Source of the DNA: Dehalococcoidia bacterium
GTDB taxonomy: Bacteria > Chloroflexota > Dehalococcoidia > GIF9 > AB-539-J10
Reading direction: 5' to 3'
Assembly (NCBI GenBank): GCA_046538235.1
Contig: JBKHJG010000007.1
Location: forward strand, 10,517 to 74,516
Length of the DNA: 64,000 nt
The position numbers and the translations under genes were made by a program. Shown here in pieces: positions 2,810 through 15,792 of this stretch. Under the pieces are notes generated by a model. That model was not told the origin of the DNA. It saw only the letters and a list, made by a program, of their open reading frames with translations, and searched no databases. Within the stretch, counting starts at the first letter, position 1; each line of letters opens with the position of its first letter.

Positions 2810-2972
2810 GACGGAGGGTAGTCGTGCTGGCCTTCCTGCGCCGCGAGTGTATGCCCCTGCCGTTTTGGACCAGCCGCCTGCTCTCGATGACCAATCCATT
2901 CTCACCGTAGAGATTGGGTCATACGTGAAAGCGCTGAAAGGCGGCACGACAGCATCCATATTCAACTGGTCC

Positions 2973-3046
2973 AGCTTGTCGGGTTCACGGAGTTCACCCA
3001 CAACGGCAGGTAGTGATCAGTGATTGAGCGCTGACGTCGTCGGGAC
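2973..3046 (+). repeat. Degenerate remnants of the 9-mer and 7-mer repeats between the GT and ABC genes
   Basis: agcttgtcg-ggttcacgg-agttcac (2973-2997); agtgatc-agtgatt (3012-3025); gacgtcgtcgggac resembles the right arm of the 38-bp element. Confidence 0.4.
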
Positions 3047-3169
3047 CAAGCGGTCTGTTGGATCCACCGTGTTTGGCTGTTGCCGTGCATGTTATACTGA
3101 GGGCAGCGTGGTTTTGCGCAGGCCATTCGAATCAAGACGTGCCGCCAAGATCATGGGGGGTGTATCCCC

Positions 3170-4966
3170 ATGAACATGTTCCGTAAGGTCCTGGACCTGC
3201 TGACGCCCAAGGAGCGGCGGCTGCTGTGGGTGGTATTCGCCGGGGTGCTGACGGCAGCGTTGCTGGAGACTGCGGGCGTGGCTTCCATCCTGCCGTTCCT
3301 GACCCTGGTGGCCAGCCCGGATGCCGTTACGGATAACGCCATCGTCAGCTGGCTGTTCAACACGTTAGGGTTCACGGATGTGAACCGCTTTCTCCTCTTC
3401 CTGGGCGTGGGGGCAGTGGCGGTGCTGATCGTGAGCAACGCCCTGCGGGCGGCGGTGATGTGGGGGATGCTGCGCTTCAGCTGGGGGCGGAACCACAGCA
3501 TCTCCCGGCGGCTGCTGGCGGGGTACCTGCACAGACCGTACACCTTTTTCCTGAACGAGAACACGGCCATCCTGGGGCGCAACATACTGGGGGAGACGGG
3601 GCAGCTAGTGAACGGGATACTGGTGCCGGGGATCGAGATGCTGGCGAGGGCGGTGGTGCTGATATTCATCCTGGCGCTGCTCATCGCAGTGGACCCGGTG
3701 CTGGCGCCTGCGCTGTTCCTGTCGCTGGGGCTGGTATACGGTGCAATCTACCTGTTCGCCCGGAGGAGGCTGGGCAGGATCGGAAGTGAGCGGATCGAGG
3801 CAAACGCGGGGCGTTACAAGACGGCCAACGAGGCATTCGGCGGCATCAAGCTGGTGAAGCTGCTGGGGGCGGAGGAGGGCTTCGTGGAGCAGTACAGCCG
3901 CCACTCCTGGAGGTTCGCCACACGGACGGCAGCGGCGTCGGTGATCTCCCGCGTACCCCAGTACGCGCTGGAGACGGTGGCCTTCGGGGGGATTATGCTA
4001 ATCGTGGTATACCTGCTGGGCACGGGGGGAGACCTGGCGCAGGTGCTGCCGCTGGCAGGGCTGTTCGTGTTTGCCGGCGGGCGCATAATGCCGGCCATGC
4101 AGCACATCTTCCACGGTATGTCGCAGTTGCGGTTCAATACGGCCGTGCTGGACACGCTGCACGAGGCGTTACGGGAGAGCGGGGAGGCGGCGGGGGGCAC
4201 GGTGTCGCGCGATGTGGAGCCGCTGCCTTTCAAGGAGAGGCTGGAGCTGCAAAACACCAGCTTCCGCTATCCGGGCACGACAGAGCCGGTGATACACGGG
4301 GTGTCGGTGACGATCAAGGCGGGCTCATCGGTGGCGTTCGTGGGGACGACGGGGGCGGGCAAGACCACGATCGGGGACATCATACTGGGACTGCTGCCGC
4401 CGTCGGAGGGCAGCATGCGTGCCGACGGGGTGGAAATCACCGACGAGAACATCCACCGCTGGCAGCGCAACCTGGGCTACGTGCCGCAGGACATCTACCT
4501 GCAGGACAACACGGTGGCCTCGAACATAGCCTTCGGGACGGCGGAGAAGGATGTGGACATGGAGGCGGTGGAGCGGGCGGCGAGAATTGCCAAGATACAC
4601 GACTTCATCGTGAACGAGCTGCCGCAGGGGTACAGGACGACGGTGGGGGAGCGGGGAGTGCGGTTAAGCGGCGGCGAGCGTCAGAGGGTGGGCATCGCCC
4701 GGGCGCTGTACCACAACCCGGAGGTGCTGGTGCTGGACGAGGCGACCAGCGCGCTGGACGGGGCGACGGAGCGGGCGGTGTTCGCGGCTATAGAGAGCGT
4801 GGCCAGGGTGAAGACGCTGATCATCATCGCCCACCGTCTGAGCACGGTGCGCAACTGCGACGTCGTCTATGTGCTGGAGCACGGACGGATTGTGGCCCGG
4901 GGAACCTACGACGAGCTGATGGAGTCCAGCGCCAGGTTCCAGGAGATGGCGAAGGGGAGGGGGTGA
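3170..4966 (+). CDS. ABC transporter permease/ATPase, PglK/MsbA-like lipid-linked glycan exporter
   Basis: N-terminal TM helices; Walker A GTTGAGKT, LSGGERQR, VLVLDEATSALD, IAHRL; located in a glycan locus. Confidence 0.85.
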   Translation: MNMFRKVLDLLTPKERRLLWVVFAGVLTAALLETAGVASILPFLTLVASPDAVTDNAIVSWLFNTLGFTDVNRFLLFLGVGAVAVLIVSNALRAAVMWGMLRFSWGRNHSISRRLLAGYLHRPYTFFLNENTAILGRNILGETGQLVNGILVPGIEMLARAVVLIFILALLIAVDPVLAPALFLSLGLVYGAIYLFARRRLGRIGSERIEANAGRYKTANEAFGGIKLVKLLGAEEGFVEQYSRHSWRFATRTAAASVISRVPQYALETVAFGGIMLIVVYLLGTGGDLAQVLPLAGLFVFAGGRIMPAMQHIFHGMSQLRFNTAVLDTLHEALRESGEAAGGTVSRDVEPLPFKERLELQNTSFRYPGTTEPVIHGVSVTIKAGSSVAFVGTTGAGKTTIGDIILGLLPPSEGSMRADGVEITDENIHRWQRNLGYVPQDIYLQDNTVASNIAFGTAEKDVDMEAVERAARIAKIHDFIVNELPQGYRTTVGERGVRLSGGERQRVGIARALYHNPEVLVLDEATSALDGATERAVFAAIESVARVKTLIIIAHRLSTVRNCDVVYVLEHGRIVARGTYDELMESSARFQEMAKGRG

Positions 4967-4975
4967 GAAAGAGGG

Positions 4976-5020
4976 GAGTTTGTTGAGTTCGTTGAGTTCG
5001 CTGGGTACGCTGAGTTCAGT
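4976..5020 (+). repeat. 9-bp imperfect tandem repeat x5
   Basis: gagtttgtt gagttcgtt gagttcgct gggtacgct gagttcagt. Confidence 0.9.
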
Positions 5021-5021
5021 G

Positions 5022-5059
5022 GGGTTGCCACGCCCCGCCAGGTCCGGGCTCGCAATGAC
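5022..5059 (-). repeat. Palindromic extragenic element of the GTCATTGCGAG...GTGGCAAYC type
   Basis: Reverse complement reads gtcattgcgagcccggacctggcggggcgtggcaaccc; ttgc/gcaa and gccc/gggc arms pair. Confidence 0.55.
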
Positions 5060-5067
5060 ATTCGCTC

Positions 5068-5090
5068 AGTGATTGGTGAGTGGTGACTGG
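5068..5090 (+). repeat. 7-bp tandem repeat x3 (RGTGANY)
   Basis: agtgatt ggtgagt ggtgact. Confidence 0.7.
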
Positions 5091-5155
5091 CAAGCAGAGT
5101 CGTCTGCTGGAAGGCGCCCCGCGTCGCGCAGGGCTGCCGCGAGGTGTGTCCCCGG

Positions 5156-5485
5156 TCACATGCGCAACATCCCCAGCAGCTTTCGGTTCACTTCCTCTCG
5201 CGCCTGCTGGCCAAGCTCCCCAAGCTCGCCCACAACCAGGTCCTTCAAGACGGTGGCAACCTTGTCGAGTCTGATGAGGGAGTCTACCTTCAACCCCGTC
5301 TTGCCGAAGCCGGCATCTTGCTCGCCCAGCAGAACACCGGTCTCGGAAGCTACTGCTGGCACCCTCGATGATATGAACGCCACGACAATGTCTTCGCCAC
5401 CTTCGTAGATTACCAGGGCCGGTCTAAGCTTGGCCGCCGTCAGGTCTGTGAACGGAAACGGGACGAGCACTATCTTGCCCTTCAT
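5156..5485 (-). CDS. PemK/MazF family toxin
   Basis: GKIVLVPFPFTDL...KLRPALVI, VVAFISS, TGLKVDSLIRLDKVATV; overlaps upstream gene (ATGA). Confidence 0.9.
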   Translation of the reverse strand: MKGKIVLVPFPFTDLTAAKLRPALVIYEGGEDIVVAFISSRVPAVASETGVLLGEQDAGFGKTGLKVDSLIRLDKVATVLKDLVVGELGELGQQAREEVNRKLLGMLRM

Positions 5486-5673
5486 CTGTAGCGGACCTTC
5501 AGGTCTTCGACCTTGTAGACATCCGGCTCCCTCTCAAGGAAAGCCGACAGCGATGTCTCTGCCAGCCTCATCATCCAGGCAGTCTCTCTCTCGCTCAATA
5601 GCTCATCTATCTTCCTTGACATTCGAACTATCTGCTGCTTCAGATCTCTGACCTCGGCTTCTATGTTCATCAT
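5482..5673 (-). CDS. Putative antitoxin partner of the PemK-like toxin
   Basis: 63 aa; AGGAGG RBS at 5681-5686 before ATG 5673; C-terminus AETSLSAFLEREPDVY...DLKVRYR; coupled to the toxin. Confidence 0.7.
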   Translation of the reverse strand: MMNIEAEVRDLKQQIVRMSRKIDELLSERETAWMMRLAETSLSAFLEREPDVYKVEDLKVRYR

Positions 5674-5772
5674 GATCGTTCCTCCTGCCCAGAGCTTTGC
5701 CCTCAGCACCGGCCACCTGTGGACAGTGTAGGTTCTGCAGCTGGATTAGTCAAGGGCGGGCGGGGTGATGAG

Positions 5773-5807
5773 GACCAGTGACCAGTGACTAGTGACTGGT
5801 CACTGGT
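5773..5807. repeat. 7-bp repeat x5 forming a perfect 13-bp inverted repeat
   Basis: accagtgaccagt (5774-5786), loop gactagtg, actggtcactggt (5795-5807). Confidence 0.9.
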
Positions 5808-5809
5808 GG

Positions 5810-5992
5810 CTACCTGCCGCGGGCGATGATCTCCACGATCTTCTGCGCAGCATGGCCGTCGCCGAAGACGTTGCCCTGCTCTCCCTTTGGTTCAAACTGC
5901 CTGACAGCGTCGATGATCCTGTCTCTGTCCGACCCGACCAGGGTGTTCCAGCCATCCTCCACGGTCTCGGGCCAGCCGGTGGCGTCGTCCAG
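5810..5992 (-). pseudogene. Start-less C-terminal fragment (60 codons) of a second UDP-GlcNAc 2-epimerase
   Basis: Manual translation LDDATGWPETVEDGWNTLVGSDRDRIIDAVRQFEPKGEQGNVFGDGHAAQKIVEIIARGR* matches the WecB C-terminus (TEWPET..G.N.LVG...GDGHAA). Confidence 0.85.
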
Positions 5993-6025
5993 TTTGTTGA
6001 GTTTATTCGGTTTGCTGGGTTTGCT
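5990..6025 (+). repeat. 9-bp repeat x4 overlapping the wecB stop codon
   Basis: cagtttgtt gagtttatt cggtttgct gggtttgct; encodes the QQTQQTE* tail of WecB. Confidence 0.85.
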
Positions 6026-7217
6026 GGGAGAGAATGCCTACAATCCTCTCCGCGGCCTTGCCGTCCCAGAGGTCGGGACAGCTTCCCGCCTTGCCTTTGC
6101 CATTGAGGATCTTGAAGGCCTCGGCAACGATTGTTTCAGTCCGGTTCCAGACGAGGGTGTTCGTGCCTGCGGTTATGGTTATGGGCCTTTCAGTGGTGTC
6201 GCGCAGGGTGAGGCAGGGTATACCGAGCACGGTAGTCTCCTCTTGAATTCCACCGGAATCGGTCATCACGAACCTGGCATTCATCTCGAGATTGAGGAAG
6301 TCGAGGTAACCGAGGGGCGGGATGAGGAGGAGGCGTTCATTGAGTTTGTTGAGTTCCTTGGGTTTATTGAGTTCAGTGAGTTTCTCGCGTTCCGCTAATG
6401 GCGCGAGGGCAGCATCAGGGAGGAGGCCGAATTCCTGGAGCTTCTTCTGGGTGCGGGGGTGGGCGGGAAAGAGCACAGGGACTGATTCAGATATCTTCCT
6501 GACGGCGCTCATGATGCAGGCCAGGCTGTGCCTGTCGTCTACGTTGGAGGGGCGGTGCAGCGTCAGCAGGGCGTAACCACGCACAGGCAGACCCAGCCTC
6601 TCCAGGATGTCCGACTTCTCGGCCAGGGGCTTGTTGTAGAGGAGGCTGTCTATCATCACGTTTCCGACGAAGAATATCTTCTGGTCCGGAATGCCTTCTC
6701 TCCTCAGATTCTCATCGGCGTCCGGTGAGGGAGTGAAGAGAAGATCGGAGACCTGGTCAGTGAGAAGCCTGTTTATCTCCTCGGGCATCGCGCGATCGCC
6801 GGAGCGGAGTCCGGCTTCCACATGGGCCACAGGCAGATGCAACTTGACGGCGGCCAGGGCGGCGGCCAGGGTGGAGTTGACGTCGCCCACCACGACGACA
6901 AGGTCGGGACGCTCATCCAGCAGCACCTTCTCCAACTCGATCATCACCTTGCCCGTCTGCTGGGCATGGCTGCCCGAACCAACCCCCAGATAGATGTCGG
7001 GTCTGGGCAGGGCCAGGTCCTGGAAGAAGACCTGGGACATCTCGTAGTCATAGTGCTGGCCGGTGTGGACGAGGAGGGGGTGGATGCGTTCGTTGGGTTT
7101 GTTGGGTTCCTTGGGTTGCTTGAGTTCGTTGAGTTTGTTGTGCTCAGCTATCGCCCTGAGAATGGGAGCGATCTTCATGAAGTTGGGTCGGGCGCCGCAG
7201 ACCAGGGCTGCTTTCAT
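6003..7217 (-). CDS. wecB: UDP-N-acetylglucosamine 2-epimerase (non-hydrolysing) with two repeat-derived loop insertions
   Basis: GARPNFMK, HTGQHYD, VVGDVNST, HVEAGLRS, PEEINR, TDSGGIQEE; start MKAAL at 7217. Confidence 0.95.
   Translation of the reverse strand: MKAALVCGARPNFMKIAPILRAIAEHNKLNELKQPKEPNKPNERIHPLLVHTGQHYDYEMSQVFFQDLALPRPDIYLGVGSGSHAQQTGKVMIELEKVLLDERPDLVVVVGDVNSTLAAALAAVKLHLPVAHVEAGLRSGDRAMPEEINRLLTDQVSDLLFTPSPDADENLRREGIPDQKIFFVGNVMIDSLLYNKPLAEKSDILERLGLPVRGYALLTLHRPSNVDDRHSLACIMSAVRKISESVPVLFPAHPRTQKKLQEFGLLPDAALAPLAEREKLTELNKPKELNKLNERLLLIPPLGYLDFLNLEMNARFVMTDSGGIQEETTVLGIPCLTLRDTTERPITITAGTNTLVWNRTETIVAEAFKILNGKGKAGSCPDLWDGKAAERIVGILSQQTQQTE
6333..6386 (+). repeat. 9-bp repeat x6, in frame inside wecB
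   Basis: gcgttcatt gagtttgtt gagttcctt gggtttatt gagttcagt gagtttctc = EKLTELNKPKELNKLNER. Confidence 0.9.
7086..7139 (+). repeat. 9-bp repeat x6, in frame inside wecB
   Basis: gcgttcgtt gggtttgtt gggttcctt gggttgctt gagttcgtt gagtttgtt = NKLNELKQPKEPNKPNER. Confidence 0.9.
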
Positions 7218-7227
7218 CGTGGACGGT

Positions 7228-7236
7228 ATTATAGCA
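7228..7236 (-). promoter_or_regulatory. Extended -10 (TGcTATAAT) 10 nt before the wecB ATG; probable leaderless/short-leader start
   Basis: Minus strand reads gctgctataataccgtccacgATG; no SD sequence. Confidence 0.55.
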
Positions 7237-7242
7237 GCAAAC

Positions 7243-7323
7243 ATGTTTGTTGCGTTCATTGGGTTTGCTGGGTTTATCGAGTTCGTTGGGTTCGTTGGGT
7301 TTATTGGGCCTATTGGGTTTGTT
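7243..7323 (+). repeat. 9-bp repeat x9
   Basis: atgtttgtt gcgttcatt gggtttgct gggtttatc gagttcgtt gggttcgtt gggtttatt gggcctatt gggtttgtt. Confidence 0.95.
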
Positions 7324-7332
7324 GGGGCGGGG

Positions 7333-8643
7333 CTATTCGCCCAGGCGGACTATGTTGTCGCCCCGGAGCCCCCGGGTCACGCCACGGGTATCGAAGACCA
7401 GGCTTGCGCGGGCCGTTATGTCGGCGATATCGTAGCAGCTATGGTCGGCGGCTATGACCACGCAGTCGGCGGAGGCCAGGCGTTGGCCATCCAGCGCCAC
7501 CGATTCCATGTCGCCTGCCGGCACATGAATGCGGGGGACATAAGGGTCATTGTAGCTGACATCGGCCCCCTTCTCGCACAGAAGCTGGACCATCTTGAGG
7601 GCCGGGGACTCCCTGGTATCGGCCACGTCCTTCTTGTAGGCCACCCCGAGGACCAGGACCCTCGCGCCGTGGAGGCTCTTGCCCCTGGCGCTCAACGCTT
7701 CGATAATGCGGGAAACGACGTGGTAGGGCATATGCTCGTTGACCTCGGCGGCCAGCTCGATGAACCTGGTGTGGAAGTCGAGTTCGCGGGCCTTGTTGGC
7801 CAGGTAGTAGGGGTCGAGCGGGATGCAGTGTCCGCCCACGCCGGGTCCGGGATAGAAGGGCATGTAGCCGAAGGGCTTGGTGGAAGCCGCATCGATGACC
7901 TCCCAGGCGCTGAGCCCCATCCTCTCACAGAGGTGGGCCAGCTCGTTGACCAGGGCGATGTTGACGCTGCGGAAGACATTCTCAAAGATCTTGGTCATCT
8001 CGGCCGCCTCCGGGCAGGAGACGGGGAGCACGCTGCCGGCGACCTGCGAGTAGAGGAGCCGGGCCAGGTGGGTGGAGGCGGAGTCCATGCCGCCCACGAT
8101 CTTGGGCGTGTTGGTGATGTTGTAGTCCCTGCTGCCGGGGTCGACCCGCTCCGGCGAGTAGGCCAGGTAGAAATCGGCTCCGCAGCGGAGTCCCGATTCC
8201 TCCAGGGCGGGCAGGACCACCTGCCTGGTGGTGCCGGGATAGGTGGTGCTCTCCAGGACGACCAGCTGCCCGGGGCGTAAGTGCCTGGAGATCTCGCGGG
8301 ACTCGTGAATGACGTAGGAGAGGTCGGGGTCCTTGGTGGGGGTGAGGGGGGTGGGGACGCAGATGCAGATGGCATCGGCCTCTGCCAGGCGGGCCTGGTC
8401 GGTGGTGGCCTCCAGGAGTCCCTTGCTCACGACTGCGGCCAGGCTATCGCCGGAGACGTCGGCGATATAGGACTCTCCCCGGTTGACCGAGTCCACGTTG
8501 TTCTGCCGGATATCGAATCCCAGCACCCTGAAGCCGGCCGCGGCGAAGGCGACCGCCAGCGGCAGCCCCACATAGCCAATGCCGACTATGCCCACTACGG
8601 CGGACCGGTCCTCGATCTTCTGTTCCAGTGCCGGCAAGGTCAT
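7333..8643 (-). CDS. Nucleotide-sugar dehydrogenase (UDP-GlcNAc/ManNAc 6-dehydrogenase family)
   Basis: GIGYVGLP, ICVPTP, LESTTYPGTT, SPERVDPG, GPGVGGHCIP, LGVAYKKD. Confidence 0.95.
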   Translation of the reverse strand: MTLPALEQKIEDRSAVVGIVGIGYVGLPLAVAFAAAGFRVLGFDIRQNNVDSVNRGESYIADVSGDSLAAVVSKGLLEATTDQARLAEADAICICVPTPLTPTKDPDLSYVIHESREISRHLRPGQLVVLESTTYPGTTRQVVLPALEESGLRCGADFYLAYSPERVDPGSRDYNITNTPKIVGGMDSASTHLARLLYSQVAGSVLPVSCPEAAEMTKIFENVFRSVNIALVNELAHLCERMGLSAWEVIDAASTKPFGYMPFYPGPGVGGHCIPLDPYYLANKARELDFHTRFIELAAEVNEHMPYHVVSRIIEALSARGKSLHGARVLVLGVAYKKDVADTRESPALKMVQLLCEKGADVSYNDPYVPRIHVPAGDMESVALDGQRLASADCVVIAADHSCYDIADITARASLVFDTRGVTRGLRGDNIVRLGE

Positions 8644-8673
8644 TTCTCTTGCGCTACAAGTTTAGCATAGGTC

Positions 8674-8754
8674 GGGGCTATTGGGTTGGTTGGGTTCGTT
8701 GGGTTCGTTGGGTTTGTTGAGTTCATTGAGTTTGTTGGGTTGCTTGCCTTTGTG
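8674..8754 (+). repeat. 9-bp repeat x8-9
   Basis: ggggctatt gggttggtt gggttcgtt gggttcgtt gggtttgtt gagttcatt gagtttgtt gggttgctt gcctttgtg. Confidence 0.95.
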
Positions 8755-8808
8755 GGCTGCCAGTTCGCGCCGGCGCAGGCAGGAGAACACTTCATGCCAG
8801 AGGGAGCG

Positions 8809-9225
8809 TCAACATTGAGCCTGAGATATCTTGTGCCCGACGAACTCGACGACCTCGGCAGCCATGGCGACAGCGCCCGTGGCAGCCTCAGATGTGAAGA
8901 CTCTGGCAGGGATGCCATCGGGCAGGCTGTTGGGATACCTGCTGGTTACATAGTAGCCATCAAGTATTGACCACGTCTTAGCTCGCGTGGCGAACTCCCC
9001 ATCCAACCGCGCAGCTGCAGCGCACAGCCTTTCCACCGAGTGCCCGATGACAAGCTCCTCTCCCCGGGCATAAAGGAAGGCTTTGAGGGCCTTCTCTGCC
9101 ACCTGCTGTGCCAGGAAACAGGCGATGTGATAGCCGCCTTGCCTGGCGAGCTCACGTGACCACTTCAGATCCTCTGAAGCCTGCTCCAGCCACCTCCTGC
9201 CCTCTTCAAGCGGCTCGTTTCTCAT
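8809..9225 (-). CDS. HEPN domain protein
   Basis: WLEQASEDL, ACFLAQQVAEKALKAFL, GHSVERL, YVTSRYPN; start MRNEP assumed. Confidence 0.9.
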   Translation of the reverse strand: MRNEPLEEGRRWLEQASEDLKWSRELARQGGYHIACFLAQQVAEKALKAFLYARGEELVIGHSVERLCAAAARLDGEFATRAKTWSILDGYYVTSRYPNSLPDGIPARVFTSEAATGAVAMAAEVVEFVGHKISQAQC

Positions 9226-9559
9226 ATAACACAACCTCATCGGCCAGCGCTTTTCGCAGAAAAGGGGTCTCCCTCATCCTCTCGAACTCCTGCGGAGTGT
9301 AGCAGAGTATGTCGGCATCGACAGGAAGAGCAAGAAGCCCGTGGATCTCCGCTATCCTCTCGGGGAATGCCTTATCCGACTCCATTACGACAAGGACGTC
9401 CAGGTCCGTAAGAAGGTCACTCCGGCCCCTGGCATATGAGCCAAACAGGCTGATCCTGTGCACATCGAGGTGGGACAGCCTGGTCACTATCTCGGAGGCC
9501 GAATGGTGCAGAAGCCTGCGGTACTCCCGCCTCCTCCGCACCAGCTCTCTGCTATTCAT
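9206..9559 (-). CDS. Minimal nucleotidyltransferase (MNT) partner of HEPN
   Basis: LFGSYARG...TDLDVLVV, VDADILCYTPQEF; overlaps the HEPN gene; TGgTATAAT at 9568-9576, 8 nt before the ATG. Confidence 0.9.
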   Translation of the reverse strand: MNSRELVRRRREYRRLLHHSASEIVTRLSHLDVHRISLFGSYARGRSDLLTDLDVLVVMESDKAFPERIAEIHGLLALPVDADILCYTPQEFERMRETPFLRKALADEVVLYEKRAA

Positions 9560-9609
9560 ACGTTACTATTATACCACCGGACGGGAGAAGCCGGGTCGTG
9601 GCAGACCTC

Positions 9610-9662
9610 GGGTTGCTTGGTTTGTCCCCATGTGATGCGGGATCTCCGACAGGAGTCGCGAG
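9610..9662 (+). repeat. Degenerate 9-mers plus degenerate copy of the 38-bp element
   Basis: gggttgctt ggttt, then gtccccatgtgatgcgggatctccgac, 21/27 identical to gtcccgataccatgcgcgatccccgac at 13125. Confidence 0.65.
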
Positions 9663-9752
9663 TCATCGGACCTCGGCTGCGCCGGGATTGCGTTTGTTGG
9701 CTCTAGGGAGCATTGCCCAGCCGGACCGAACAGTCCCCACGGCATGTTCCCA

Positions 9753-10097
9753 TTAAACAAACAAAGTCACCAGCTTCGCCAGCACCTCGGAGACTGTCTC
9801 AGTCGCCAGCGTGCATATCAATTCCGCATTTCGGGCACGCCAATCCAGGTTCTTGACCTGGTCAGATAAGATTGCCCCCACTACCGGCAACCCCGCTGGA
9901 AGAGGTACCTCGAAAGGGTACCCTTTGACCTGGCGGGTAATGGGGCAAAGGATAGCCAGCCCCGTCTTACGATTGTAGGCTTTGGGTGACAATACTACCA
10001 CAGGACGACGTCCTGCCTGTTCATGACCGGCCTGGGGCGTCAGGGTAATCCACAGCACATCGCCGCGTTCAGGGACATAGGATGGAACTTCTACCAC
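9753..10097 (-). CDS. mazF: MazF endoribonuclease toxin
   Basis: YVPERGDVLWI...PQAGHEQAGRRPVVVLSP..YN, CPITRQVKGYPFEV, DQVKNLDWRAR. Confidence 0.95.
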   Translation of the reverse strand: MVEVPSYVPERGDVLWITLTPQAGHEQAGRRPVVVLSPKAYNRKTGLAILCPITRQVKGYPFEVPLPAGLPVVGAILSDQVKNLDWRARNAELICTLATETVSEVLAKLVTLFV

Positions 10098-10333
10098 GTC
10101 TCGTTCCCTACGGCAGGACCGGCATCGATCTCGGGATGCAGGTTCTCCCCGGTGACCCCGGCCAGAAGTTGCTCAAGAGTGAGCTCCTGCCTGGTTACCG
10201 GGGTTATCACAATCTTCCCATCAGCCAGCGATACCTCAACAGATGTCTCCTTGCGGAGCCCTACCTCATCGGCCAGCAATTTGGGTATGCGCAAAGCAAG
10301 GCTGTTACCCCATTTCTGAACACGCGTTTTCAT
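10091..10333 (-). CDS. mazE: MazE/AbrB antitoxin
   Basis: VQKWGNSLALRIPK, TLEQLLAGVTGENLHPEID.GPAVGNE.W. Confidence 0.95.
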   Translation of the reverse strand: MKTRVQKWGNSLALRIPKLLADEVGLRKETSVEVSLADGKIVITPVTRQELTLEQLLAGVTGENLHPEIDAGPAVGNETW

Positions 10334-10351
10334 ATAAGGCCTCCACCTGTA

Positions 10352-10359
10352 GTATATAC
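10352..10359. promoter_or_regulatory. GTATATAC palindrome upstream of mazE; candidate autoregulatory operator
   Basis: Perfect palindrome just upstream of the GGAGG RBS of mazE. Confidence 0.4.
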
Positions 10360-10395
10360 AAGGATGATACTCTTTGTGCGGACATTTGTCGAATT

Positions 10396-10422
10396 GGGTT
10401 CGTTGGGTTCGTTGAGTTTGTC
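10396..10422 (+). repeat. 9-bp repeat x3 abutting the hicA stop
   Basis: gggttcgtt gggttcgtt gagtttgtc. Confidence 0.85.
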
Positions 10423-10651
10423 ATTCCTTCAGCAGCTCACTGAATTTTTCGATGGAAATATACGCATCGCGTACTAAAGACCTCAGCAATCCACGATCCA
10501 AAACCTTATGTTCCGGGATAGACAAAGTGGTGACCATGCCTTGCTTCTTCATGATGATATGCCTGGTTCTAGCTCTCCTCACAACCCTCCACCCATCCCT
10601 CTCAAAGGCCCTGACGGCTTCCCTGCCTGAAATTACCGGCAATTTTGCCAT
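10421..10651 (-). CDS. hicA: HicA family toxin
   Basis: LPVISGREAVRAFERDGW, H.IMKK, LSIPEHKVLDRGLLRSLVRDA. Confidence 0.9.
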   Translation of the reverse strand: MAKLPVISGREAVRAFERDGWRVVRRARTRHIIMKKQGMVTTLSIPEHKVLDRGLLRSLVRDAYISIEKFSELLKE

Positions 10652-10857
10652 TACACTGCTATCTCGATGGAAGCTAGCTCTTTTGTCTCCGAGATTAAAT
10701 CTTCATCCAGAGCAGATAAACACCCTCTAATAGCATCCTTGATGTTCTCAATTGCCTCCTCTATGGTATTACCCTGAGAATGACAGCCTGGAATAGCAGG
10801 GCAATGTGCTACATAGCCAAAATCCTCACCCTTTTCAATCACTATTCTGTAAACCAT
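10651..10857 (-). CDS. hicB: HicB family antitoxin
   Basis: YVAHCPAIPGCHSQGNTIEEAIENIKDAI; TAATG coupling; AT-richer than flanks. Confidence 0.92.
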   Translation of the reverse strand: MVYRIVIEKGEDFGYVAHCPAIPGCHSQGNTIEEAIENIKDAIRGCLSALDEDLISETKELASIEIAV

Positions 10858-10965
10858 TTGTTACTCCTTCATCACCTAACGGAATCTTGTCGCTGAATTC
10901 CTTTTTTATGCTATATCACCCTCCCCGACGTTGTCAAAGCAAGGACGGCTTGCCGATGAGCGGTT

Positions 10966-11055
10966 GGGTTCCTTGAGTTTGTTGGGTTGGTTGGGTTGCT
11001 CGCGTTCGTTGGGTTTGTTGAGTTTGTTGAGTTTGTTGAGTTTGTTGAGTTGCTG
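10966..11055 (+). repeat. 9-bp repeat x10
   Basis: gggttcctt gagtttgtt gggttggtt gggttgctc gcgttcgtt gggtttgtt (gagtttgtt)x3 gagttgctg. Confidence 0.95.
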
Positions 11056-11142
11056 TGGCGTCGCGCGCTTGTCAACCAGGCGACAGAACCTGATGAGGCG
11101 TCTTGCGGCCCTTCTTCCTCCGAACCGAATAGACTGAGTACA

Positions 11143-11349
11143 TCAATCGCCCCACCATTCCAGGGCCTTGTGCTGAAGCTCTACCGAGGTATACCGGTCC
11201 CCTAACTCCCGTAACGCCCCCCTCCACTGAAGCTTCAGCTCCCCTCTCTCCCCGGCGTCCCGCTTCTGCAGCAAGAACTCCACAAAGCTCTTGGCCTCTT
11301 CCTGAAGATCGGGCGGCAACTGCTCCAGCAACTCCCTTAGCGTCGGCAT
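11143..11349 (-). CDS. DUF2281-like putative antitoxin (orphan)
   Basis: MPTLRELLEQLPPDLQEEAKSFVEFLLQK...LKLQWRGALREL..RYTSVELQHKALEWWGD; AAGGAGG RBS. Confidence 0.8.
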   Translation of the reverse strand: MPTLRELLEQLPPDLQEEAKSFVEFLLQKRDAGERGELKLQWRGALRELGDRYTSVELQHKALEWWGD

Positions 11350-11470
11350 TGATAGCCTCCTTGCATATATCTGATCCTTGGTCCTTCGCAGGCACAGGTC
11401 AGGCTGCGCCACTACCAGAATTATACGCTGTTCCCGGCTGCCAGCAAACCGGTACACGTCGACCGGCACC

Positions 11471-11663
11471 GAGTTCGTCCCGATACCACGCCGGACCGCC
11501 GACTGCGTCGGGGCTGGGTTCATTGAGTTTGCTGAGTTTGTCCCGATACCATGCGCGATCCCCAACTACATCGGCACGCAGTTCGTTGAGTTCGTTGGGT
11601 CAATTCGCAGCGATCGGCGAATACTGAACATTGAGTGGCGACTCAGTTCGGTGGGTTCATTGC
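11471..11663 (+). repeat. Two 38-bp hairpin elements (11477-11514, 11540-11577) embedded in 9-mer repeats
   Basis: gtcccgataccacgccggaccgccgactgcgtcggggc and gtcccgataccatgcgcgatccccaactacatcggcac; 9-mers at 11516-11542, 11579-11596, 11644-11661. Confidence 0.85.
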
Positions 11664-11674
11664 GTCTGGCGGGG

Positions 11675-11893
11675 CTAGGTACAGGAAGGCACCAGGTTTT
11701 CCAGCGACACGCCTCTATCTTTGAGTCCCGGGCTCAACTCGCTGGCATCCAGCACCTCCAGCGCCACAATGCGCTCACCCGGCCCGATGTCCACCGCTAC
11801 CTGATCATTGAGACGGATCACCTCGCACTGCACCCGTTCCTATATGAAACGGATTGTCAACGCATCTACGCTGGGATCATAAACGATCTTCAT
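11675..11893 (-). pseudogene. DUF2283-like gene with an in-frame TAG at codon 18
   Basis: MKIVYDPSVDALTIRFI*ERVQCEVIRLNDQVAVDIGPGERIVALEVLDASELSPGLKDRGVSLENLVPSCT*; GGAGGTG RBS at 11903-11909; stop at 11840-11842. Confidence 0.8.
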
Positions 11894-11927
11894 CTCTGCC
11901 ATCACCTCCCTCAGACCGGCCAGGGCC

Positions 11928-12000
11928 AGCAATCTCAACCCACTCAACAAACCCAGGCAACTCCAGCAACCAGTTCACCATTCACTATTTATTGTTCACT
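11928..12000 (-). repeat. 9-mer (x4) and 7-mer (x4) repeats in inverted orientation
   Basis: agcaatctc aacccactc aacaaaccc aggcaactc (11928-11963); gttcacc attcact atttatt gttcact (11973-12000). Confidence 0.75.
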
Positions 12001-12048
12001 CGCTCCCCCGATAGCCATCCTTGCGGTGCCCGCTGCCACTAACAGCTC

Positions 12049-12074
12049 GTAGGGGAGGGTCTTGTGCCCTCCCC
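12049..12074 (+). repeat. GTAG-type REP-like hairpin
   Basis: gta-ggggaggg-tcttgtg-ccctcccc: 5' GTAG with a perfect 8-bp stem. Confidence 0.65.
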
Positions 12075-12217
12075 AAACCCTGAATCCACCAACTACGTGT
12101 GACATTATTCACTTGACTGAATGCGGACCTCATGTTATCGTCTATTTATTAGAACTCTTGTACTAACCTGCTGCCCGGTCCGGCAAACCCAGCCAGCCGG
12201 GTGAGGTTTCCAGGAGA

Positions 12218-12586
12218 TTGACTGCTAACATGACACAAAACAAAAGGAACCGCGGCGGCCAGAAAGGCAATCAGAATGCCCGTAAACACGGCTTCTATTC
12301 CTCTACCCTCAGCCCCGACGAAGCATCCCGGCTCCGCACCATCACGGAACTGGAAGGCGTTGACCCCCAGATAGCGCTCCTCCGCGTCAAGCTCCAGGCT
12401 TCCCTTCAGCATGACCCCGGTAACCGCCGCGTCCTCAGAGAAGCCTCTGCATTGCTTGCAACATGGTATGCTGCCGAATACGGGTTGGACTCGACCGACC
12501 GCAACTACCTCAGAACCGTCATCGAGAATACTCTGGAAAACACCTTAATACATCACTCTGATACCCTGACCGGCCCACGCACATGA
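12218..12586 (+). CDS. Hypothetical protein with GGQxGNxNAxKHG motif
   Basis: RGGQKGNQNARKHGFYS, a motif seen at the N-terminus of terminase-small-subunit-like proteins; start may be ATG 12230. Confidence 0.7.
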   Translation: MTANMTQNKRNRGGQKGNQNARKHGFYSSTLSPDEASRLRTITELEGVDPQIALLRVKLQASLQHDPGNRRVLREASALLATWYAAEYGLDSTDRNYLRTVIENTLENTLIHHSDTLTGPRT

Positions 12587-12601
12587 ACAGACGATCCTTA
12601 C

Positions 12602-12798
12602 CAAACGAATCGAGTGTACTTTAACAACTGAATATGCCCCGGGCCGGCGCCTCGCCCAGCACCCCTGACAAGACCAACCCTCCACAAGACGAATCAAAGC
12701 TACCATGACAGTCCAATCTCCCTCCGGTGCTCCGCCCCACTCACCAAAAGGCGCCGCTTAAACCCCGGATAAGAATCCATTCCGCAAAACGAATCGAA
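12602..12798 (+). repeat. Three dispersed copies of ARACGAATCRA
   Basis: aaacgaatcga (12603), agacgaatcaa (12687), aaacgaatcga (12787). Confidence 0.6.
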
Positions 12799-12897
12799 TG
12801 CAGTCCAGCAACCGACCACCCCCCCCGCCCTCGGTGAGAACGTTCGGCCCTGCGGGTGAGTACCAGGCAGTCGAGGTAGCCGACGGGAGAAACAAGC

Positions 12898-12922
12898 GGT
12901 AACTGGTGACTAGTGACTGGTC
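12898..12922 (+). repeat. 7-bp repeat x3; 17 bp identical to 5785-5801
   Basis: ggtaact ggtgact agtgact ggtc; gtgactagtgactggtc occurs at both 12906 and 5785. Confidence 0.85.
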
Positions 12923-12932
12923 TTGAGAGCTG

Positions 12933-13004
12933 CTTGACACCACGCCTCAGAACCTCGTACAGCCCTTCTCTTGTCCCAATCATGAGCACGAGCACGATGG
13001 TTCT
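12933..13004 (-). pseudogene. Probable C-terminal remnant of a RelE/ParE toxin
   Basis: RTIVLVLMIGTREGLYEVLRRGVK resembles the RelE-family end (V.V..IG.RE..Y..L.R); upstream sequence is unrelated. Confidence 0.5.
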
Positions 13005-13124
13005 GACAGCCCCGGCGAATCTGCCAGTATACGTTGGCCTGTCATTCAAGGAACAGCTCCGCCTGGCCAGCGTCGGCTGCTCGGCCCGGTCCCCGGCCGC
13101 CCGGTCCCTTGAGCCCATTCATCT

Positions 13125-13184
13125 GTCCCGATACCATGCGCGATCCCCGACTACATCGGGGCTAAGTTCATTGGGTTCGTTGGG
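13125..13184 (+). repeat. 38-bp hairpin element plus 9-mers just downstream of the aglB stop
   Basis: gtcccgataccatgcgcgatccccgactacatcggggc (35/38 identical to 11540-11577), then aagttcatt gggttcgtt ggg. Confidence 0.9.
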
Positions 13185-13197
13185 TGAGAGGTGCCGT

Positions 13198-15537
13198 TCA
13201 GGGGCCGAGGTACTCGAAGACCTTGACGGGGCGGGTGCCCTCGGTCTGGTAGATGAGCTGATAGCTCTGCAGTGCTTCCAGTGGCACCGGGCTCTTGAAG
13301 GGGTCGGGACTGACGATAATGTAGTTGTCACCGGTCTGATCGGCCAGATATGCCGCGGCCTCCTCGTAGGTATCGAAGAACTGGGCGCTGGTGATCTCCT
13401 TGTAGGGCACTCCTCCGGGCGCCGTTTTCCCCTGGTAAGAGATGACGATTGACTCCTCGGGAACGACGGCCTGACCATCGAAGTTATAGAGCCTGGCCAC
13501 CATGGACCGGTAGTAGTGCTCGTGATAGAGGGTTATGGGGGACAGGTTGCCATCCTCCGTGCGCTGGTAATAGACATCGAAGTAGTCGCTCCGGTTGAGC
13601 CCGGCCCACTCGACCATGGCGTAGAACTTGCCGGTAGGCATGGTGTAGTCGATGACCACGTATCTGGTGCCCAGCTCATCCAGCTGCTCGCTGGCGGAGG
13701 TCTCATTGAGGGAGGTGAAGTAGCGGCCGGCCCGCGGGGCCCCGGACTGCGTGGGGTTTGCATTGGGCAGGCGGTGGCCGATCTGCGTTATGAAGTAACC
13801 GTAGTCCCACCAGGACATGACTCCGTAGGCGGTCTCGGGATATTCGAAGTCACCCCTGGACGGGTATAGCTCGTAGTAATAGTCGGGGCCGCCGAAGGGC
13901 TCGGGGCTGTTCTCCCTCAGCCAGTCAAGCGATTCATACCACTCGCCATGTATGACGAAGTTGGGCTGGCCCGCCAGCCTCCTTGTGTTGGGGATGTTGG
14001 GGAAGAAGACCAGGAAGAAGAGGGCTATGCCCACAACAATGACCAGCAGCCAGGTCCCCCGGGGCTGCATGAACGTTCCTTTGCTTGCCTTCTCACGGGC
14101 CTTCTTCTTCCTCTTCTTGAACTCCCTGACAGCCGCCACGGCTTCCCCGGGCCGGGTCAGCAGCCTGTTCAGGCCGGCCAGGTCCAGCATCTTCCAGGTG
14201 AAGTACCCTGTGAGCAGGGCCGCATTGACGGCGAAGTAGTAGCCAAAGCGGCGCTGCCCCAGCACGGCCATGAGCATGACGATGCTCCAGATGAGGAAGA
14301 CGGTCTTGTGGGCGCTCTTCTCTCTGACGGTGGCAAAGGCCAGCATGAAGAGCGCGATGAAGGAGATGAAGAAGGAGGTGGTGAAGTTGGCCCAGGCTAT
14401 CTGAAAGGAGAAATTCCCTCCGGGGAAGAGGATGGGCTGCGCCTCCATGATGGTGAGACTGGCGCCGGCGGGGGAGAAGATGCTGAACAGGCCCCGCATG
14501 GAACGAAACAGACCGGGACTGATGCCATAGAGGACGGCCAGGCTTATGCCGGCCAGCACGAGCAGAGTCAAGGGATAGTAGAGGGGTCTCAAGCGCCTGC
14601 CCTGCATAAGGCGGGAGATGAGGGCCAGAGCTATGGGCGCCAGGATGGCAATGGACATGGCCAGGCGATAGACAGACTCCCGGCCACCCTGGCCCAGGAC
14701 GGGCAGGAGCATGATAAAGGCAAGGAGGAAGAGGGGAGTGCCCACGATGCAGAGGTAGTCTGGCGATCTGCGCCGGAGGTGGTCGACGATGAACTGGACC
14801 AGCAGGCAGGCGAAGATGATGAAGATGAACATCAGTCCACCCACCCAGGTGAGGAGATAGAAGCCGAGGAACAGGCCGGCGAGCAGGGCATAGACCAGGG
14901 GTCGGGACAGGGCCGACCAGTCCCTGGCCAGCAGATGGCGAAAGGTGATGTCCCTTTCCCGGGCGCGCTTGATGGCCATGATGAAAAAGAGCATGGACGT
15001 GGTGCTGAACAGCACCTCAGCGACATGGTGATCGGTGAAGCCGAGCAGAGAGCGGTGCAGAAACTCGCCGGGGAGGATGGCGATCAGGGCAGCCGCCAGC
15101 AGGCCCGCCCAGCGGTTGAACAATTCCCTGCCGATGAAGTAGGCGGGGATGAGGGTCAGGGCCCCCAGGACGGCCGGCATGTAGGCGCCCACGGTCTCAA
15201 TGGTCTGCAGAGAGGGCACGCCCGAGGTGACCAGCCGCACGATGCCGGCGATGAGCCAGGCAAAGAAGGGGCGGTGGAGGCCGATGCTGCCGCCGGGGTA
15301 GAGCATGTAGGGGTCGAAGCTATTGAAGTGCGGGAAGTTGCGGACCAGGTTCTCTATGTGGCGTATGTAGTAGTAGGCGTCTGTATCCCGGAACCAGACC
15401 CAGTCCTTGACGAAGACCTGGTCGTAGGGCAGGGCGATCCGGATATAGAGGGCCAGGCCAAAGAGGGCGGCCAGGACTATACCCGCTATGGCTTCCGGGG
15501 GAAGCTTAAACCCCGGCCGTGGACTTTGCTCGCTCAT
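13198..15537 (-). CDS. aglB: Oligosaccharyltransferase STT3, archaeal AglB-like
   Basis: DTDAYY, GFTDHH, MEAQP, QRRF.YY, SWWDYG, NANPTQ; many TM helices. Confidence 0.92.
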   Translation of the reverse strand: MSEQSPRPGFKLPPEAIAGIVLAALFGLALYIRIALPYDQVFVKDWVWFRDTDAYYYIRHIENLVRNFPHFNSFDPYMLYPGGSIGLHRPFFAWLIAGIVRLVTSGVPSLQTIETVGAYMPAVLGALTLIPAYFIGRELFNRWAGLLAAALIAILPGEFLHRSLLGFTDHHVAEVLFSTTSMLFFIMAIKRARERDITFRHLLARDWSALSRPLVYALLAGLFLGFYLLTWVGGLMFIFIIFACLLVQFIVDHLRRRSPDYLCIVGTPLFLLAFIMLLPVLGQGGRESVYRLAMSIAILAPIALALISRLMQGRRLRPLYYPLTLLVLAGISLAVLYGISPGLFRSMRGLFSIFSPAGASLTIMEAQPILFPGGNFSFQIAWANFTTSFFISFIALFMLAFATVREKSAHKTVFLIWSIVMLMAVLGQRRFGYYFAVNAALLTGYFTWKMLDLAGLNRLLTRPGEAVAAVREFKKRKKKAREKASKGTFMQPRGTWLLVIVVGIALFFLVFFPNIPNTRRLAGQPNFVIHGEWYESLDWLRENSPEPFGGPDYYYELYPSRGDFEYPETAYGVMSWWDYGYFITQIGHRLPNANPTQSGAPRAGRYFTSLNETSASEQLDELGTRYVVIDYTMPTGKFYAMVEWAGLNRSDYFDVYYQRTEDGNLSPITLYHEHYYRSMVARLYNFDGQAVVPEESIVISYQGKTAPGGVPYKEITSAQFFDTYEEAAAYLADQTGDNYIIVSPDPFKSPVPLEALQSYQLIYQTEGTRPVKVFEYLGP

Positions 15538-15792
15538 GATCGATTGTGCAGTGATGACGCGGCTATGGCCCGAATATGCTGCCCATTATAAACTTACCCG
15601 GCTGGAGATTACAATAGAACACGCCCTGCAGGGAGCAGTCACCCTCATCTTCCCGATCAGGTCGGGGTCTTCGTTAGTCGTCTCCTACAAGGGAGAGGAT
15701 GGCTGTGCCGGAGATAGTGAAGGGGCATGGCAGGGGCCGGACGGGCGGGGCTTTCTGTTGTACCCCGGGCCAGACTTGGCTATAATTGGGCA

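Follow-up and report, generated by a model that had tools for sequence, protein, structure and literature searches.

The window analyzed in this study, a stretch of 64,000 nucleotides (C23:10517-74516) from the genome of a Dehalococcoidia bacterium (G000; 1.59 Mb, 26 contigs, 57% GC, 90% complete), carries a series of tandem arrays of the nonamer GRGTTYRTT, which separate modules composed of glycosylation genes and toxin-antitoxin (TA) genes. The unit reads AAYRAACYC in the sense of the genes. Searching for two adjacent units (pattern GRGTTYRTTGRGTTYRTT, at most one mismatch allowed) gave 29 matches, versus 0.00 expected from 100 shuffles, all of which were located on the + strand between positions 4976 and 13181; no match was found in the remaining 50 kb (13182-64000). 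The presence of the arrays and their absence from the rest of the window had both been noted when the sequence was read on its own, prior to any database search (the sequence-only reading), and both points were borne out. In this genome, the nonamer family is restricted to a single hypervariable island, made up of glycosylation genes and TA modules, where the arrays delimit the modules, coincide with the end-points of deletions, duplications, and inversions, and vary in unit number at an orthologous site.

The first gene of the window (29-2809, +), which belongs to the central glycan block of the island, encodes a fusion between a glycosyltransferase (GT)-like protein and a polysaccharide pyruvyl transferase (Pfam Glyco_trans_1_2, 1.1e-24, and PS_pyruv_trans, 3.1e-27). 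A weak two-unit heptamer, AGTGATC AGTGATT (3012-3025, +), lies between this gene and an ABC exporter including both the transmembrane part and the ATPase (3170-4966, +; Pfam ABC_tran and ABC_membrane), an 83% identical copy of which adjoins arrays in the same-genus genome G016 (blastp). The first nonamer array (4976-5030, +) is located right after the stop codon of the exporter and 3' of a PemK pair, and is followed by the motif gggctcgcaatgaca at 5047-5061 and by a heptamer array of three units (5068-5090, +). The pair itself (5156-5709, -) consists of a PemK/MazF-type toxin (5156-5485) and an upstream partner of 75 amino acids showing no Pfam match (5482-5709); a copy with about 70% nucleotide identity is present on contig C25 and a 73% copy in G016. 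A further heptamer array (5773-5812, +) contains a 17-nt perfect-type palindrome (5774-5807) and lies 20 bp upstream of a promoter-like site (5753-5725, -). Next comes the C-terminal remnant, about 60 residues long, of a third, divergent wecB gene (5809-5990, -; identified by tblastn and translation), which is cut exactly at the nonamer array at 5990-6030 (+). This array joins the remnant to an intact UDP-GlcNAc 2-epimerase gene (wecB; 6003-7217, -; Pfam Epimerase_2, 9.7e-111), the end of which it encodes (..SQQTQQTE*); the listed open reading frame (ORF) runs to 7259, but the likely start, MKAALV, is at 7217. The wecB fragment that had been noted beside the intact gene was thus confirmed as the C-terminal remnant of a third wecB.

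Beyond wecB, an array of nine units (7245-7326, +) separates its start from the stop (7333) of a gene of the UDP-glucose/GDP-mannose dehydrogenase family (7333-8643, -; three Pfam domains; a 77% identical protein is present in G001), and an array of seven units (8681-8746, +) separates the start of the latter gene from the stop of a HEPN gene. The HEPN (8809-9240) and MNT nucleotidyltransferase (9206-9559) genes form a module (8809-9559, -; Pfam) which is followed by a degenerate array remnant (9610-9700, +) with an 85-bp element inside it (9616-9700), an 88% identical copy of which is located at C23:733-817. Then come a MazF (9753-10097) and MazE (10091-10333) module (9753-10333, -; Pfam), an array (10394-10418, +) which follows the HicA stop after 3 nt and has the promoter-like site of mazE (10392-10364, -) 2 bp downstream, a HicA (10421-10651) and HicB (10651-10857) module (10421-10857, -; Pfam), and an array of about 10 units (10962-11054, +) lying 25 bp upstream of the hicB promoter-like site (10937-10908, -). 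The DUF2281 gene (11143-11346, -) corresponds to a Pfam match at residues 76-134 of a longer ORF (11143-11565). Two short arrays (11516-11533 and 11579-11597; together 11516-11597, +) lie within a 62-bp direct repeat shared with 13124-13185 and are followed by a DUF2283 pseudogene cassette (11585-11915, -), which matches C23:1813-2143 of the opposite arm in inverted orientation with 94.6% identity; in the copy at 11675-11915, an in-frame premature TAG stands in place of the GAG of the intact copy lying upstream of the window. The only array in the reverse orientation (11946-11972, -; AAC.. on the + strand) has a heptamer tract next to it, and a heptamer array of about three units is present at 12898-12918 (+). 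The last nonamer array (13164-13185, +) is located 13 nt past the stop of the STT3/AglB-like oligosaccharyltransferase gene (13198-15537, -; Pfam STT3, AglB_core-like), the conserved border of the island.

Nonamer arrays were found at all 11 inter-module junctions in the window and at none of the four junctions internal to TA pairs, which agrees with the earlier claim that nearly every junction carries an array. Tandem Repeats Finder (TRF) gave period-9 arrays at 4976-5017, 6009-6028, 6335-6383, 7088-7140, 7245-7326, 8681-8746, 10394-10418, 10962-11054, 11580-11597, and 13166-13185. Most of the arrays listed in the sequence-only reading were confirmed in this way, but that at 9610 is degenerate and interrupted by the 85-bp element, that at 11644 is a single degenerate unit, and the wecB-internal arrays at 6335-6383 and 7088-7140 had been omitted. 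The second repeat it proposed, the heptamer RGTGANY, also occurs in tandem more often than expected (seven two-unit matches in the window, at 3012, 5068, 5075, 5777, 5784, 11973(-), and 12905, versus 0.13 expected), but the copy at 5774-5807 appears to be operator-like rather than a junction repeat, since this palindrome lies just upstream of a promoter-like site. The gene calls (ABC transporter, PemK, wecB, UDPG/GDP-mannose dehydrogenase, HEPN, MNT, MazF/MazE, HicA/HicB, DUF2281, and STT3 with AglB_core) were all upheld by Pfam, and the DUF2283 pseudogene by its premature TAG. As the host is a bacterium, having sigma70-type promoters, Rho, and Xer-type recombinases, the gene previously called aglB is a bacterial STT3/AglB-like gene.

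At the scale of the whole genome, a regular-expression search (at least two units) placed 21 of 22 matches on C23:45-22488 or on contig C25, the remaining one being a marginal two-unit match on C13. All 13 period-9 TRF rows scoring at least 49 and all eight period-27 rows likewise fall within the contig regions of the island, and the best period-9 row outside it (score 45) has an unrelated unit; the arrays are local on the scale of the genome too. Contig C25 (5.7 kb) joins the start of C23 via an identical overlap of 55 bp. Given this overlap and the confinement of the arrays, the feature is an island of about 29 kb which extends 16 kb past the left edge of the window (C23:1-10516 plus C25), the window holding the right arm only. 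Its borders are the STT3/AglB-like gene and a GT2 gene, the best NCBIfam match of which is AglJ, below the cut-off. In the left arm (C25 and C23:1-4930), the genes are on the + strand and the arrays read AAYRAACYC on that strand; a DUF2281-like gene with a truncated PemK, HicB, three DUF4258/DUF2283 sets, DUF354, and a wecB N-terminal remnant are present there. The center holds a GT4-like gene, a methyltransferase, a second wecB, the GT/pyruvyl-transferase fusion, and the ABC exporter, and in the right arm the genes are on the - strand and the arrays read GRGTTYRTT on the + strand. In both arms taken together, 17 of the 18 merged arrays in the genome, each having 2-13 units, read AAC.. in the sense of the adjoining small genes.

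Marks of REARRANGEMENT were found at the arrays, namely wecB remnants, an inverted DUF2283 cassette, a 62-bp direct repeat, and shared stretches. Both wecB remnants end exactly at arrays, that in the left arm (C23:4803-4928) doing so in the array at the insert-1 loop; the DUF2283 cassette, 331 bp long, is duplicated in inverted orientation between the two arms; and the 62-bp direct repeat (11539-11600 and 13124-13185) ends in arrays. The longest exact stretch common to two arrays is 35 bp, and exact shared stretches of at least 20 bp occur in 16 of the 153 array pairs and of at least 25 bp in five. Four public runs of one study, one of them possibly the source, contain the stretch, in the form of contigs breaking at arrays; the sides of the array-to-array joints seen in these runs are 21-41 letters long, and the best reading of the joints is that the assembly graph is ambiguous between repeats.

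The STT3 border gene is present in 24 of the 30 other same-genus genomes searched. The relatives compared are different species, with 65-83% nucleotide identity, and a metagenome scan using wecB to find strain-level relatives gave no match above 71% identity. The islands of G001, G004, and G019 have the same two genes at their borders, and the 22-30 kb in between consist mostly of different genes (island lengths in the four species: 28.5, 22.1, 26.4, and 30.3 kb). In the stretches taken from seven same-genus genomes, several of these stretches being partial islands, blastp found relatives for only 10 of the 44 crude island ORFs. This hypervariable content between fixed borders was counted in favor of recombination at the arrays. 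Single TA modules are also found at different places in the islands of relatives, or in inverted orientation, and an array usually accompanies them on the same side. The orthologous array at the distal border has 3-8 units in G001, G019, and G004. An extra RHH-PemK pair is present at this border in G004 and G019 and absent from G001, and in G004 it is flanked by a direct repeat of about 54-65 bp including the array end; together with the two wecB remnants, this pair places rearrangement end-points at arrays. The dense architecture of arrays and small ORFs observed in G000 was also found in G016.

The arrays are tolerated in-frame in wecB, where three of them occur in the intact gene: at 7088-7140 (+; loop insert 1, ..NKLNELKQPKEPNKPNE..), at 6335-6383 (+; loop insert 2, ..EKLTELNKPKELNKLNE..), and at the C-terminal end within 5990-6030. 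Upon alignment with the 67% identical, array-free orthologue of G001 and 14 metagenomic relatives, the inserts were found to be clean in-frame additions at length-variable loops and at the C-terminus, all the conserved blocks being intact. Array sequence is also present in the insert-1 loop in the left-arm remnant and in the metagenomic relatives L240 and L244, and in a database wecB (P0003; PF02350), arrays encode three inserts, located in different loops and frames. A nonamer array stays in frame because its unit length is a multiple of 3, and the AAC orientation has no stop codon in any of the three frames, which is why arrays survive in tolerant wecB loops; in the opposite orientation, the GAG units give TGA in one frame. 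Low-complexity inserts of other kinds (HTSHTS.., NLNLNL.., SESESQSQ..) were also observed in these wecB loops (L245-L251, L265, and P0003). Some of them look like translated heptamer arrays, so that short tandem repeats invade this enzyme clade repeatedly.

Outside this genome, the three-unit pattern was identified in 10 of 24 other same-genus genomes, in none of 16 genomes belonging to the order but to other families, and in one of 400 other genomes of the phylum, which belongs to the same genus; the reversed control pattern gave 0 matches in all the same-genus, order, and phylum genomes scanned. A prokaryote-wide scan based on one genome per species gave at least 120 stretches (loci L013-L132). 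Among the matches listed, 56 were of the delta/Desulfobacterota type, 14 were from Acidobacteriota, seven from Ignavibacteria, seven from Bipolaricaulota, six from Omnitrophota, four from WOR-3, and smaller numbers from others, the local GC content ranging from 27 to 71%; in a cultured Desulfatitalea alkaliphila strain, one contig matches the pattern at two sites. Single three-unit hits in very large collections need a control, and as the reversed control is not rare in viral contigs (33 stretches versus 53 with the pattern), five genomes of other phyla were searched whole with per-genome controls. These gave 227, 117, 60, 10, and 31 matches, spread over many contigs, versus 0 for the control; the nonamer family is therefore real and abundant in those genomes, and the array-abundant groups are some Desulfobacterota, Ignavibacteria, and Acidobacteriota genomes (10-227 matches). 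Phages as a vector were rejected, no clear enrichment being visible in the viral counts. The neighbors of the arrays across phyla belong to 213 Pfam families in the 150 array-adjacent ORFs scanned (of 228), none occurring more than three times, and include ATP synthase, SecA, NusB, and a tRNA synthetase, so that TA or glycan genes were rejected as general neighbors.

Across these phyla, 124 of 167 arrays are intergenic and 43 lie inside crude ORFs. The intergenic arrays are mostly located at gene 3' ends, in convergent more often than in divergent settings (23 versus 6): among the 109 having a 3'-abutting gene, 77 read AAC in the sense of that gene and 32 in the opposite sense, and 15 further arrays have no such neighbor. 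Inside ORFs, the stop-free orientation prevails (35 versus 8), because the other one gives TGA stops, and all three frames are used. Many arrays form hairpins in short spacers after genes. In close inverted pairs, the G/T-rich arm comes first in 20 cases out of 20 (loci L013-L132, and loci L319-L328 in G445); the arms are of unequal length, the A/T-rich loops differ between copies within one genome, and no consistent target-site duplications were seen by eye around these pairs. In the TRF-defined arrays from which the unit profile was drawn, conservation at positions 1, 3, 4, 5, 8, and 9 is 93-100%, whether in the 98 units from this genome or in the 728 units (135 arrays) from elsewhere, a profile that is partly circular, since the selection of arrays leans on the pattern. 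Positions 2, 6, and 7 vary, almost entirely by transitions, and their G+C content tracks the local GC content (Spearman 0.41, p = 1.4e-5, 104 loci); positions 6-7 run CG, TG, CA, and TA, as might be expected from CpG decay.

No search gave any indication of the dedicated capture or shuffling mechanism proposed in the sequence-only reading. Four PF00589 tyrosine recombinases are present in this genome, the best matches of which are Xer models; their scores with the IntI model TIGR02249 range from 48.5 to 90.9 bits, versus a cut-off of 265, and a genome-wide search with this model gave no match over the cut-off in what is a 90%-complete genome. No matches were found in this genome with PF00078 (RVT_1, reverse transcriptase, RT) or PF01797 (Y1_Tnp, Y1 transposase), and no dedicated candidate emerged for a recombinase, HUH/RAYT, or RT gene. 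An inverted-repeat scan of 4900-13300, with arms up to 160 nt apart, gave 14 pairs, only one of which, the heptamer palindrome at 5774-5807, lies at a module junction, and no attC-like inverted repeat was seen at the junctions; the arrays in each arm are direct repeats in one orientation and are not palindromic. The earlier statement that neither IntI nor attC hairpins are present was thus upheld, and the integron was rejected (at most 91 bits versus 265), as were RT- or RAYT-driven repeats in this genome. The co-orientation typical of integron cassettes is present; such cassettes, however, are mostly promoterless and expressed from Pc, whereas the modules of both arms have sigma70-like promoter matches of their own, no attI or Pc is definable in a genome lacking intI, and the neighbors found in other phyla do not tie the repeat to cassettes. 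Resemblances to G-quadruplexes, DnaA boxes, IHF sites, boxA, and ECF promoters were considered and dropped as untestable or inconsistent with the GAG units.

The interpretation that we prefer, with some reserve as it falls a little short of being probable, is that the arrays are a polar, dispersed family of 9-bp minisatellites providing portable homology for ordinary recombination, without any dedicated integrase. Slippage would change the number of units in an array, and RecA-type or illegitimate recombination between arrays would delete, duplicate, invert, or exchange modules, leaving gene remnants ending at arrays. The sense orientation would be kept because a stop-free, C-rich, G-poor, unstructured transcript spacer would be harmless or even useful as an insulator, and the arrays may indeed insulate transcription; the reshuffling would act on a locus already prone to horizontal exchange. 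Several points weigh against this interpretation. The six unit positions that are conserved here and in the 135 arrays elsewhere look like a sequence-specific constraint rather than neutral junk, and passive homology alone fails to explain why the family recurs across phyla at 27-71% GC; these cross-phylum positions and the polarity of all 20 hairpin pairs are what a passive model explains least well. The minimum RecA substrate is about 20-30 bp, and most array pairs are poor substrates because only 16 of the 153 share at least 20 bp. The alignment of the locus across relatives showed content differing between the same borders, but no strain-level structural variant with a breakpoint within an array was seen in these between-species comparisons. 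Lastly, the genome being 90% complete, a recombinase may be missing from the assembly.

The strongest rival, although we consider it distinctly less probable, is that the arrays act mainly in cis as transcription punctuation, as Rho loading (rut) sites ending the transcript of each module, with recombination being incidental; in a variant, arrays upstream of -35 boxes might serve as A-tract, UP-like elements. A rut site is a C-rich, G-poor, unstructured RNA tract, and the gene-sense composition of the arrays is A 48%, C 36.6%, G 7.2%, and T 8%, with a YC dinucleotide every 9 nt; Rho is encoded in the genome (613.9 bits versus a cut-off of 509). The arrays start 3-90 nt past stop codons, and hairpin terminators show no enrichment in the window stretch (6 found versus 6.6 expected) and are mildly enriched in the left arm (11 versus 5.9 +/- 2.3). 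Promoter-like sites in the two arms number 13 (5 versus 2.6 expected and 8 versus 2.5 expected), seven of which lie 2-50 bp downstream of an array, six after nonamer arrays and one after the heptamer palindrome, and in G001, G004, and G019 the distal-border array is 7 nt upstream of a conserved promoter. The sense bias with respect to 3'-abutting genes and the excess of convergent settings across phyla also suit punctuation, as do the six conserved positions. However, rut sites are usually about 70-80 nt long and only 8 of the 18 arrays reach 60 nt; we know of no conserved sequence in known rut sites, which makes a nonamer fixed across phyla unexpected; the arrays inside wecB would terminate transcription within an intact gene unless translation shielded them; and in every close inverted pair (20 of 20) the AAC arm comes after a GRG arm complementary to it, by which it would be sequestered. 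That the arrays are essentially coding, being selected for peptides (NKL/NEP, TNP/TNS, and QTQ repeats) acting as linkers or tails, seems highly improbable to us. The 35 of 43 ORF-internal arrays in the stop-free orientation and the in-frame arrays in wecB here and in P0003 would fit such a role, but most arrays are intergenic (all but three here), all three frames are used, the host proteins are unrelated cytoplasmic enzymes, and the orientation bias follows from the TGA stops. No match to a known RNA family was found in Rfam 15 at E <=1 in window positions 1-16000 or in the 16 kb to the left of the window, and this candidate was rejected.

A dedicated recombination or repeat-writing enzyme, in any form, strikes us as unlikely. 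More specifically, the tracts may be the cis-sites or direct products of an enzyme system shared horizontally among at least 10 bacterial phyla, an idea which we regard as improbable; this system could be a repeat-specific recombinase or one adding GRGTTYRTT to DNA 3' ends at breaks, and it is favored by the conservation of six of the nine positions across 27-71% GC, by the polarity of the 20 pairs, and by the repeated invasion of wecB loops and frames. The version given in the sequence-only reading, namely that the arrays are sites or scars of an uncharacterized site-specific, integron-like capture system, is slightly more improbable. It accounts for co-oriented modules delimited by a polar repeat, for the recurrence of modules in other positions and orientations in relatives, and for a TA-pair difference with a direct repeat on either side, such as integration at a shared core would leave; the rotated unit, GTTGAGT/GTTGGGT, fits the integron core-site consensus GTTRRRY (chance of such a fit about 18/1024 for a random 9-mer), the conserved positions resemble those of a protein-binding site, and the two array-richest loci of other phyla (L027 and L095/L110) are also sugar-modification loci, with MNT modules or many small ORFs. 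It is opposed by the TIGR02249 scores, by the lack of any RT, Y1 transposase, or attC-like hairpin in the searches described above, by the arrays varying from 2 to 14 units and being present inside genes as well, by the ordinary genes neighboring the arrays in other phyla, and by the modules having their own promoters. Even less credit can be given to the idea that an enzyme makes the arrays at DNA breaks, extending the 3' ends with GRGTTYRTT units, by templated, telomerase-like healing or by reiterative synthesis, before the ends are rejoined. Solo tracts, head-to-head pairs, and in-frame scars within genes would result. Extension of both 3' ends at a break would place the G/T-rich arm 5' and the A/C-rich arm 3' on both strands, which is the arrangement of all 20 inverted pairs, none being the opposite; loops differing from copy to copy within a genome speak against the simple copying of one element, the G/T-rich unit has fixed and variable positions, and arrays have entered several wecB loops and frames in different lineages. 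This argument rests on one asymmetry and crude ORF calls, however: no candidate enzyme was identified anywhere, this genome has no RVT_1 match, a family of hairpin elements with fixed terminal inverted repeats would give the same polarity, and slippage explains the variation in unit number at the orthologous site.

Among known systems, sedentary chromosomal integrons share with the island its co-oriented TA-rich modules, its recurring polar separator, its content varying between relatives, and, as regards the rotated nonamer, the core-site consensus. Unlike them, the island has no IntI and no attC palindromes, its separator is a tandem array of variable number which is also intragenic, its modules carry their own promoters, and the nonamer also occurs beside housekeeping genes in other phyla. 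MIRU repeats are intergenic minisatellites, oriented with transcription, which lie between co-directional genes near stop and start codons and vary in copy number, features that the arrays share. The MIRU unit is about 40-100 bp long, however, whereas the present one is 9 bp, and the present family spans phyla, is restricted to one island in this genome, and also occurs in-frame inside a gene. The STRR repeats of cyanobacteria are dispersed, mostly intergenic tandem arrays of heptanucleotides, and this genome also has heptamer arrays; the nonamer differs from them in its unit and unit length, in the phyla concerned, and in its strong strand polarity relative to genes. The 18 merged arrays here, the 10-227 matches versus 0 control matches in five genomes, and the 3-8 units at an orthologous array are what would be expected of a minisatellite family. 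Outside this genome, the arrays often form inverted pairs, that is hairpins, after genes, like the REP/BIME and MITE repeats (PMC3184786), but their arms are tandem 9-mers of unequal unit number with unconserved loops, and in the present genome no RAYT/Y1 transposase was found and nearly all the arrays are solo and not palindromic. The same source (PMC3184786, citing Ogata et al., 2000) describes Rickettsia palindromic elements fused in-frame into genes; these too are non-coding repeats lying in-frame at tolerant sites of intact protein genes, but they measure about 100-150 bp, whereas the nonamer is a tandem 9-mer. PARCELs are a family of tandem repeat DNA distributed patchily across clades and read as having spread horizontally and been shuffled within genomes; the patchiness is like that of the nonamer, but what PARCELs encode is a membrane-associated domain of 25 residues, in ORFs of unknown function, whereas the nonamer arrays are mostly non-coding. 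Exact 18-mer strings and keyword terms searched for in the full text of the literature, to the exclusion of supplementary files, gave no description of the nonamer.

Few parts of bacterial genomes change as fast as surface-glycan loci, and little is known of how their modules are reshuffled outside model organisms. Since a single 9-bp repeat marks module junctions, the ends of remnants, and loop inserts, module exchange can be traced here with a simple sequence probe, and six positions fixed at 27-71% GC in distant phyla imply either horizontal spread or a shared factor reading the repeat. The interest of the family lies mainly in this cross-phylum conservation combined with traceable module shuffling in a glycosylation island. 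The exciting possibility is a dedicated enzyme that recombines or writes repeats; under such a system, cassette junctions and in-frame inserts in loops would be written into genomes. With a cultured carrier, the Desulfatitalea alkaliphila strain, possible roles in termination, recombination, and protein binding are open to bench work. As far as annotation is concerned, the arrays create spurious ORF extensions and break short-read assemblies.

Several other elements were observed in and around the island. The 85-bp element sits inside an array in both arms (9616-9700 and C23:733-817) and contains, when read antisense to the modules, a GC hairpin followed by a T-rich run, giving terminator-like hits. 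The motif gggctcgcaatgaca and related hairpins also follow arrays in G001, G004, and G019 (L136, L134, and L138), that of G019 being an imperfect palindrome of about 100 nt (gattgcttcg...cgaagcaatc); we presume that they resemble a repeat common in metagenome-assembled genomes of several phyla. A further hairpin, the GC-rich ccccccgggggtctgggggctggccccc, is found in the interval from an array to the promoter after it at C23:904-943 (L001) and C25:3210-3257 (L002), and has one copy outside the island at C11:9358-9398. An ORF of 122 amino acids (12218-12586, +), on the strand opposite to the modules, has a weak, below-cut-off match with a phage terminase small subunit model (E 5.6e-4, 19.7 bits versus 120), and may be what remains of a phage within the island.

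Short tandem repeats also form a second cluster, on contig C22 (the whole of its 7 kb), at C11:2000-9100, and at the ends of C24, C26, C19, and C20. Its repeats are the heptamers GCTGAYN, AATGACA, and TTTGGCA, in up to 9.4 copies, and they probably break the assembly, since several of them sit at contig ends. These heptamer arrays flank type IV pilus genes (two N_methyl pilins, T2SSF, and T2SSE), a PIN-HTH pair, and response regulators. The pilus ATPase at C22:3751-6048 (L235; T2SSE and MshEN) has an N-terminal match with the Mrr_cat restriction endonuclease domain (E 4.5e-5, 24 bits versus a cut-off of 21), which is an unusual fusion.

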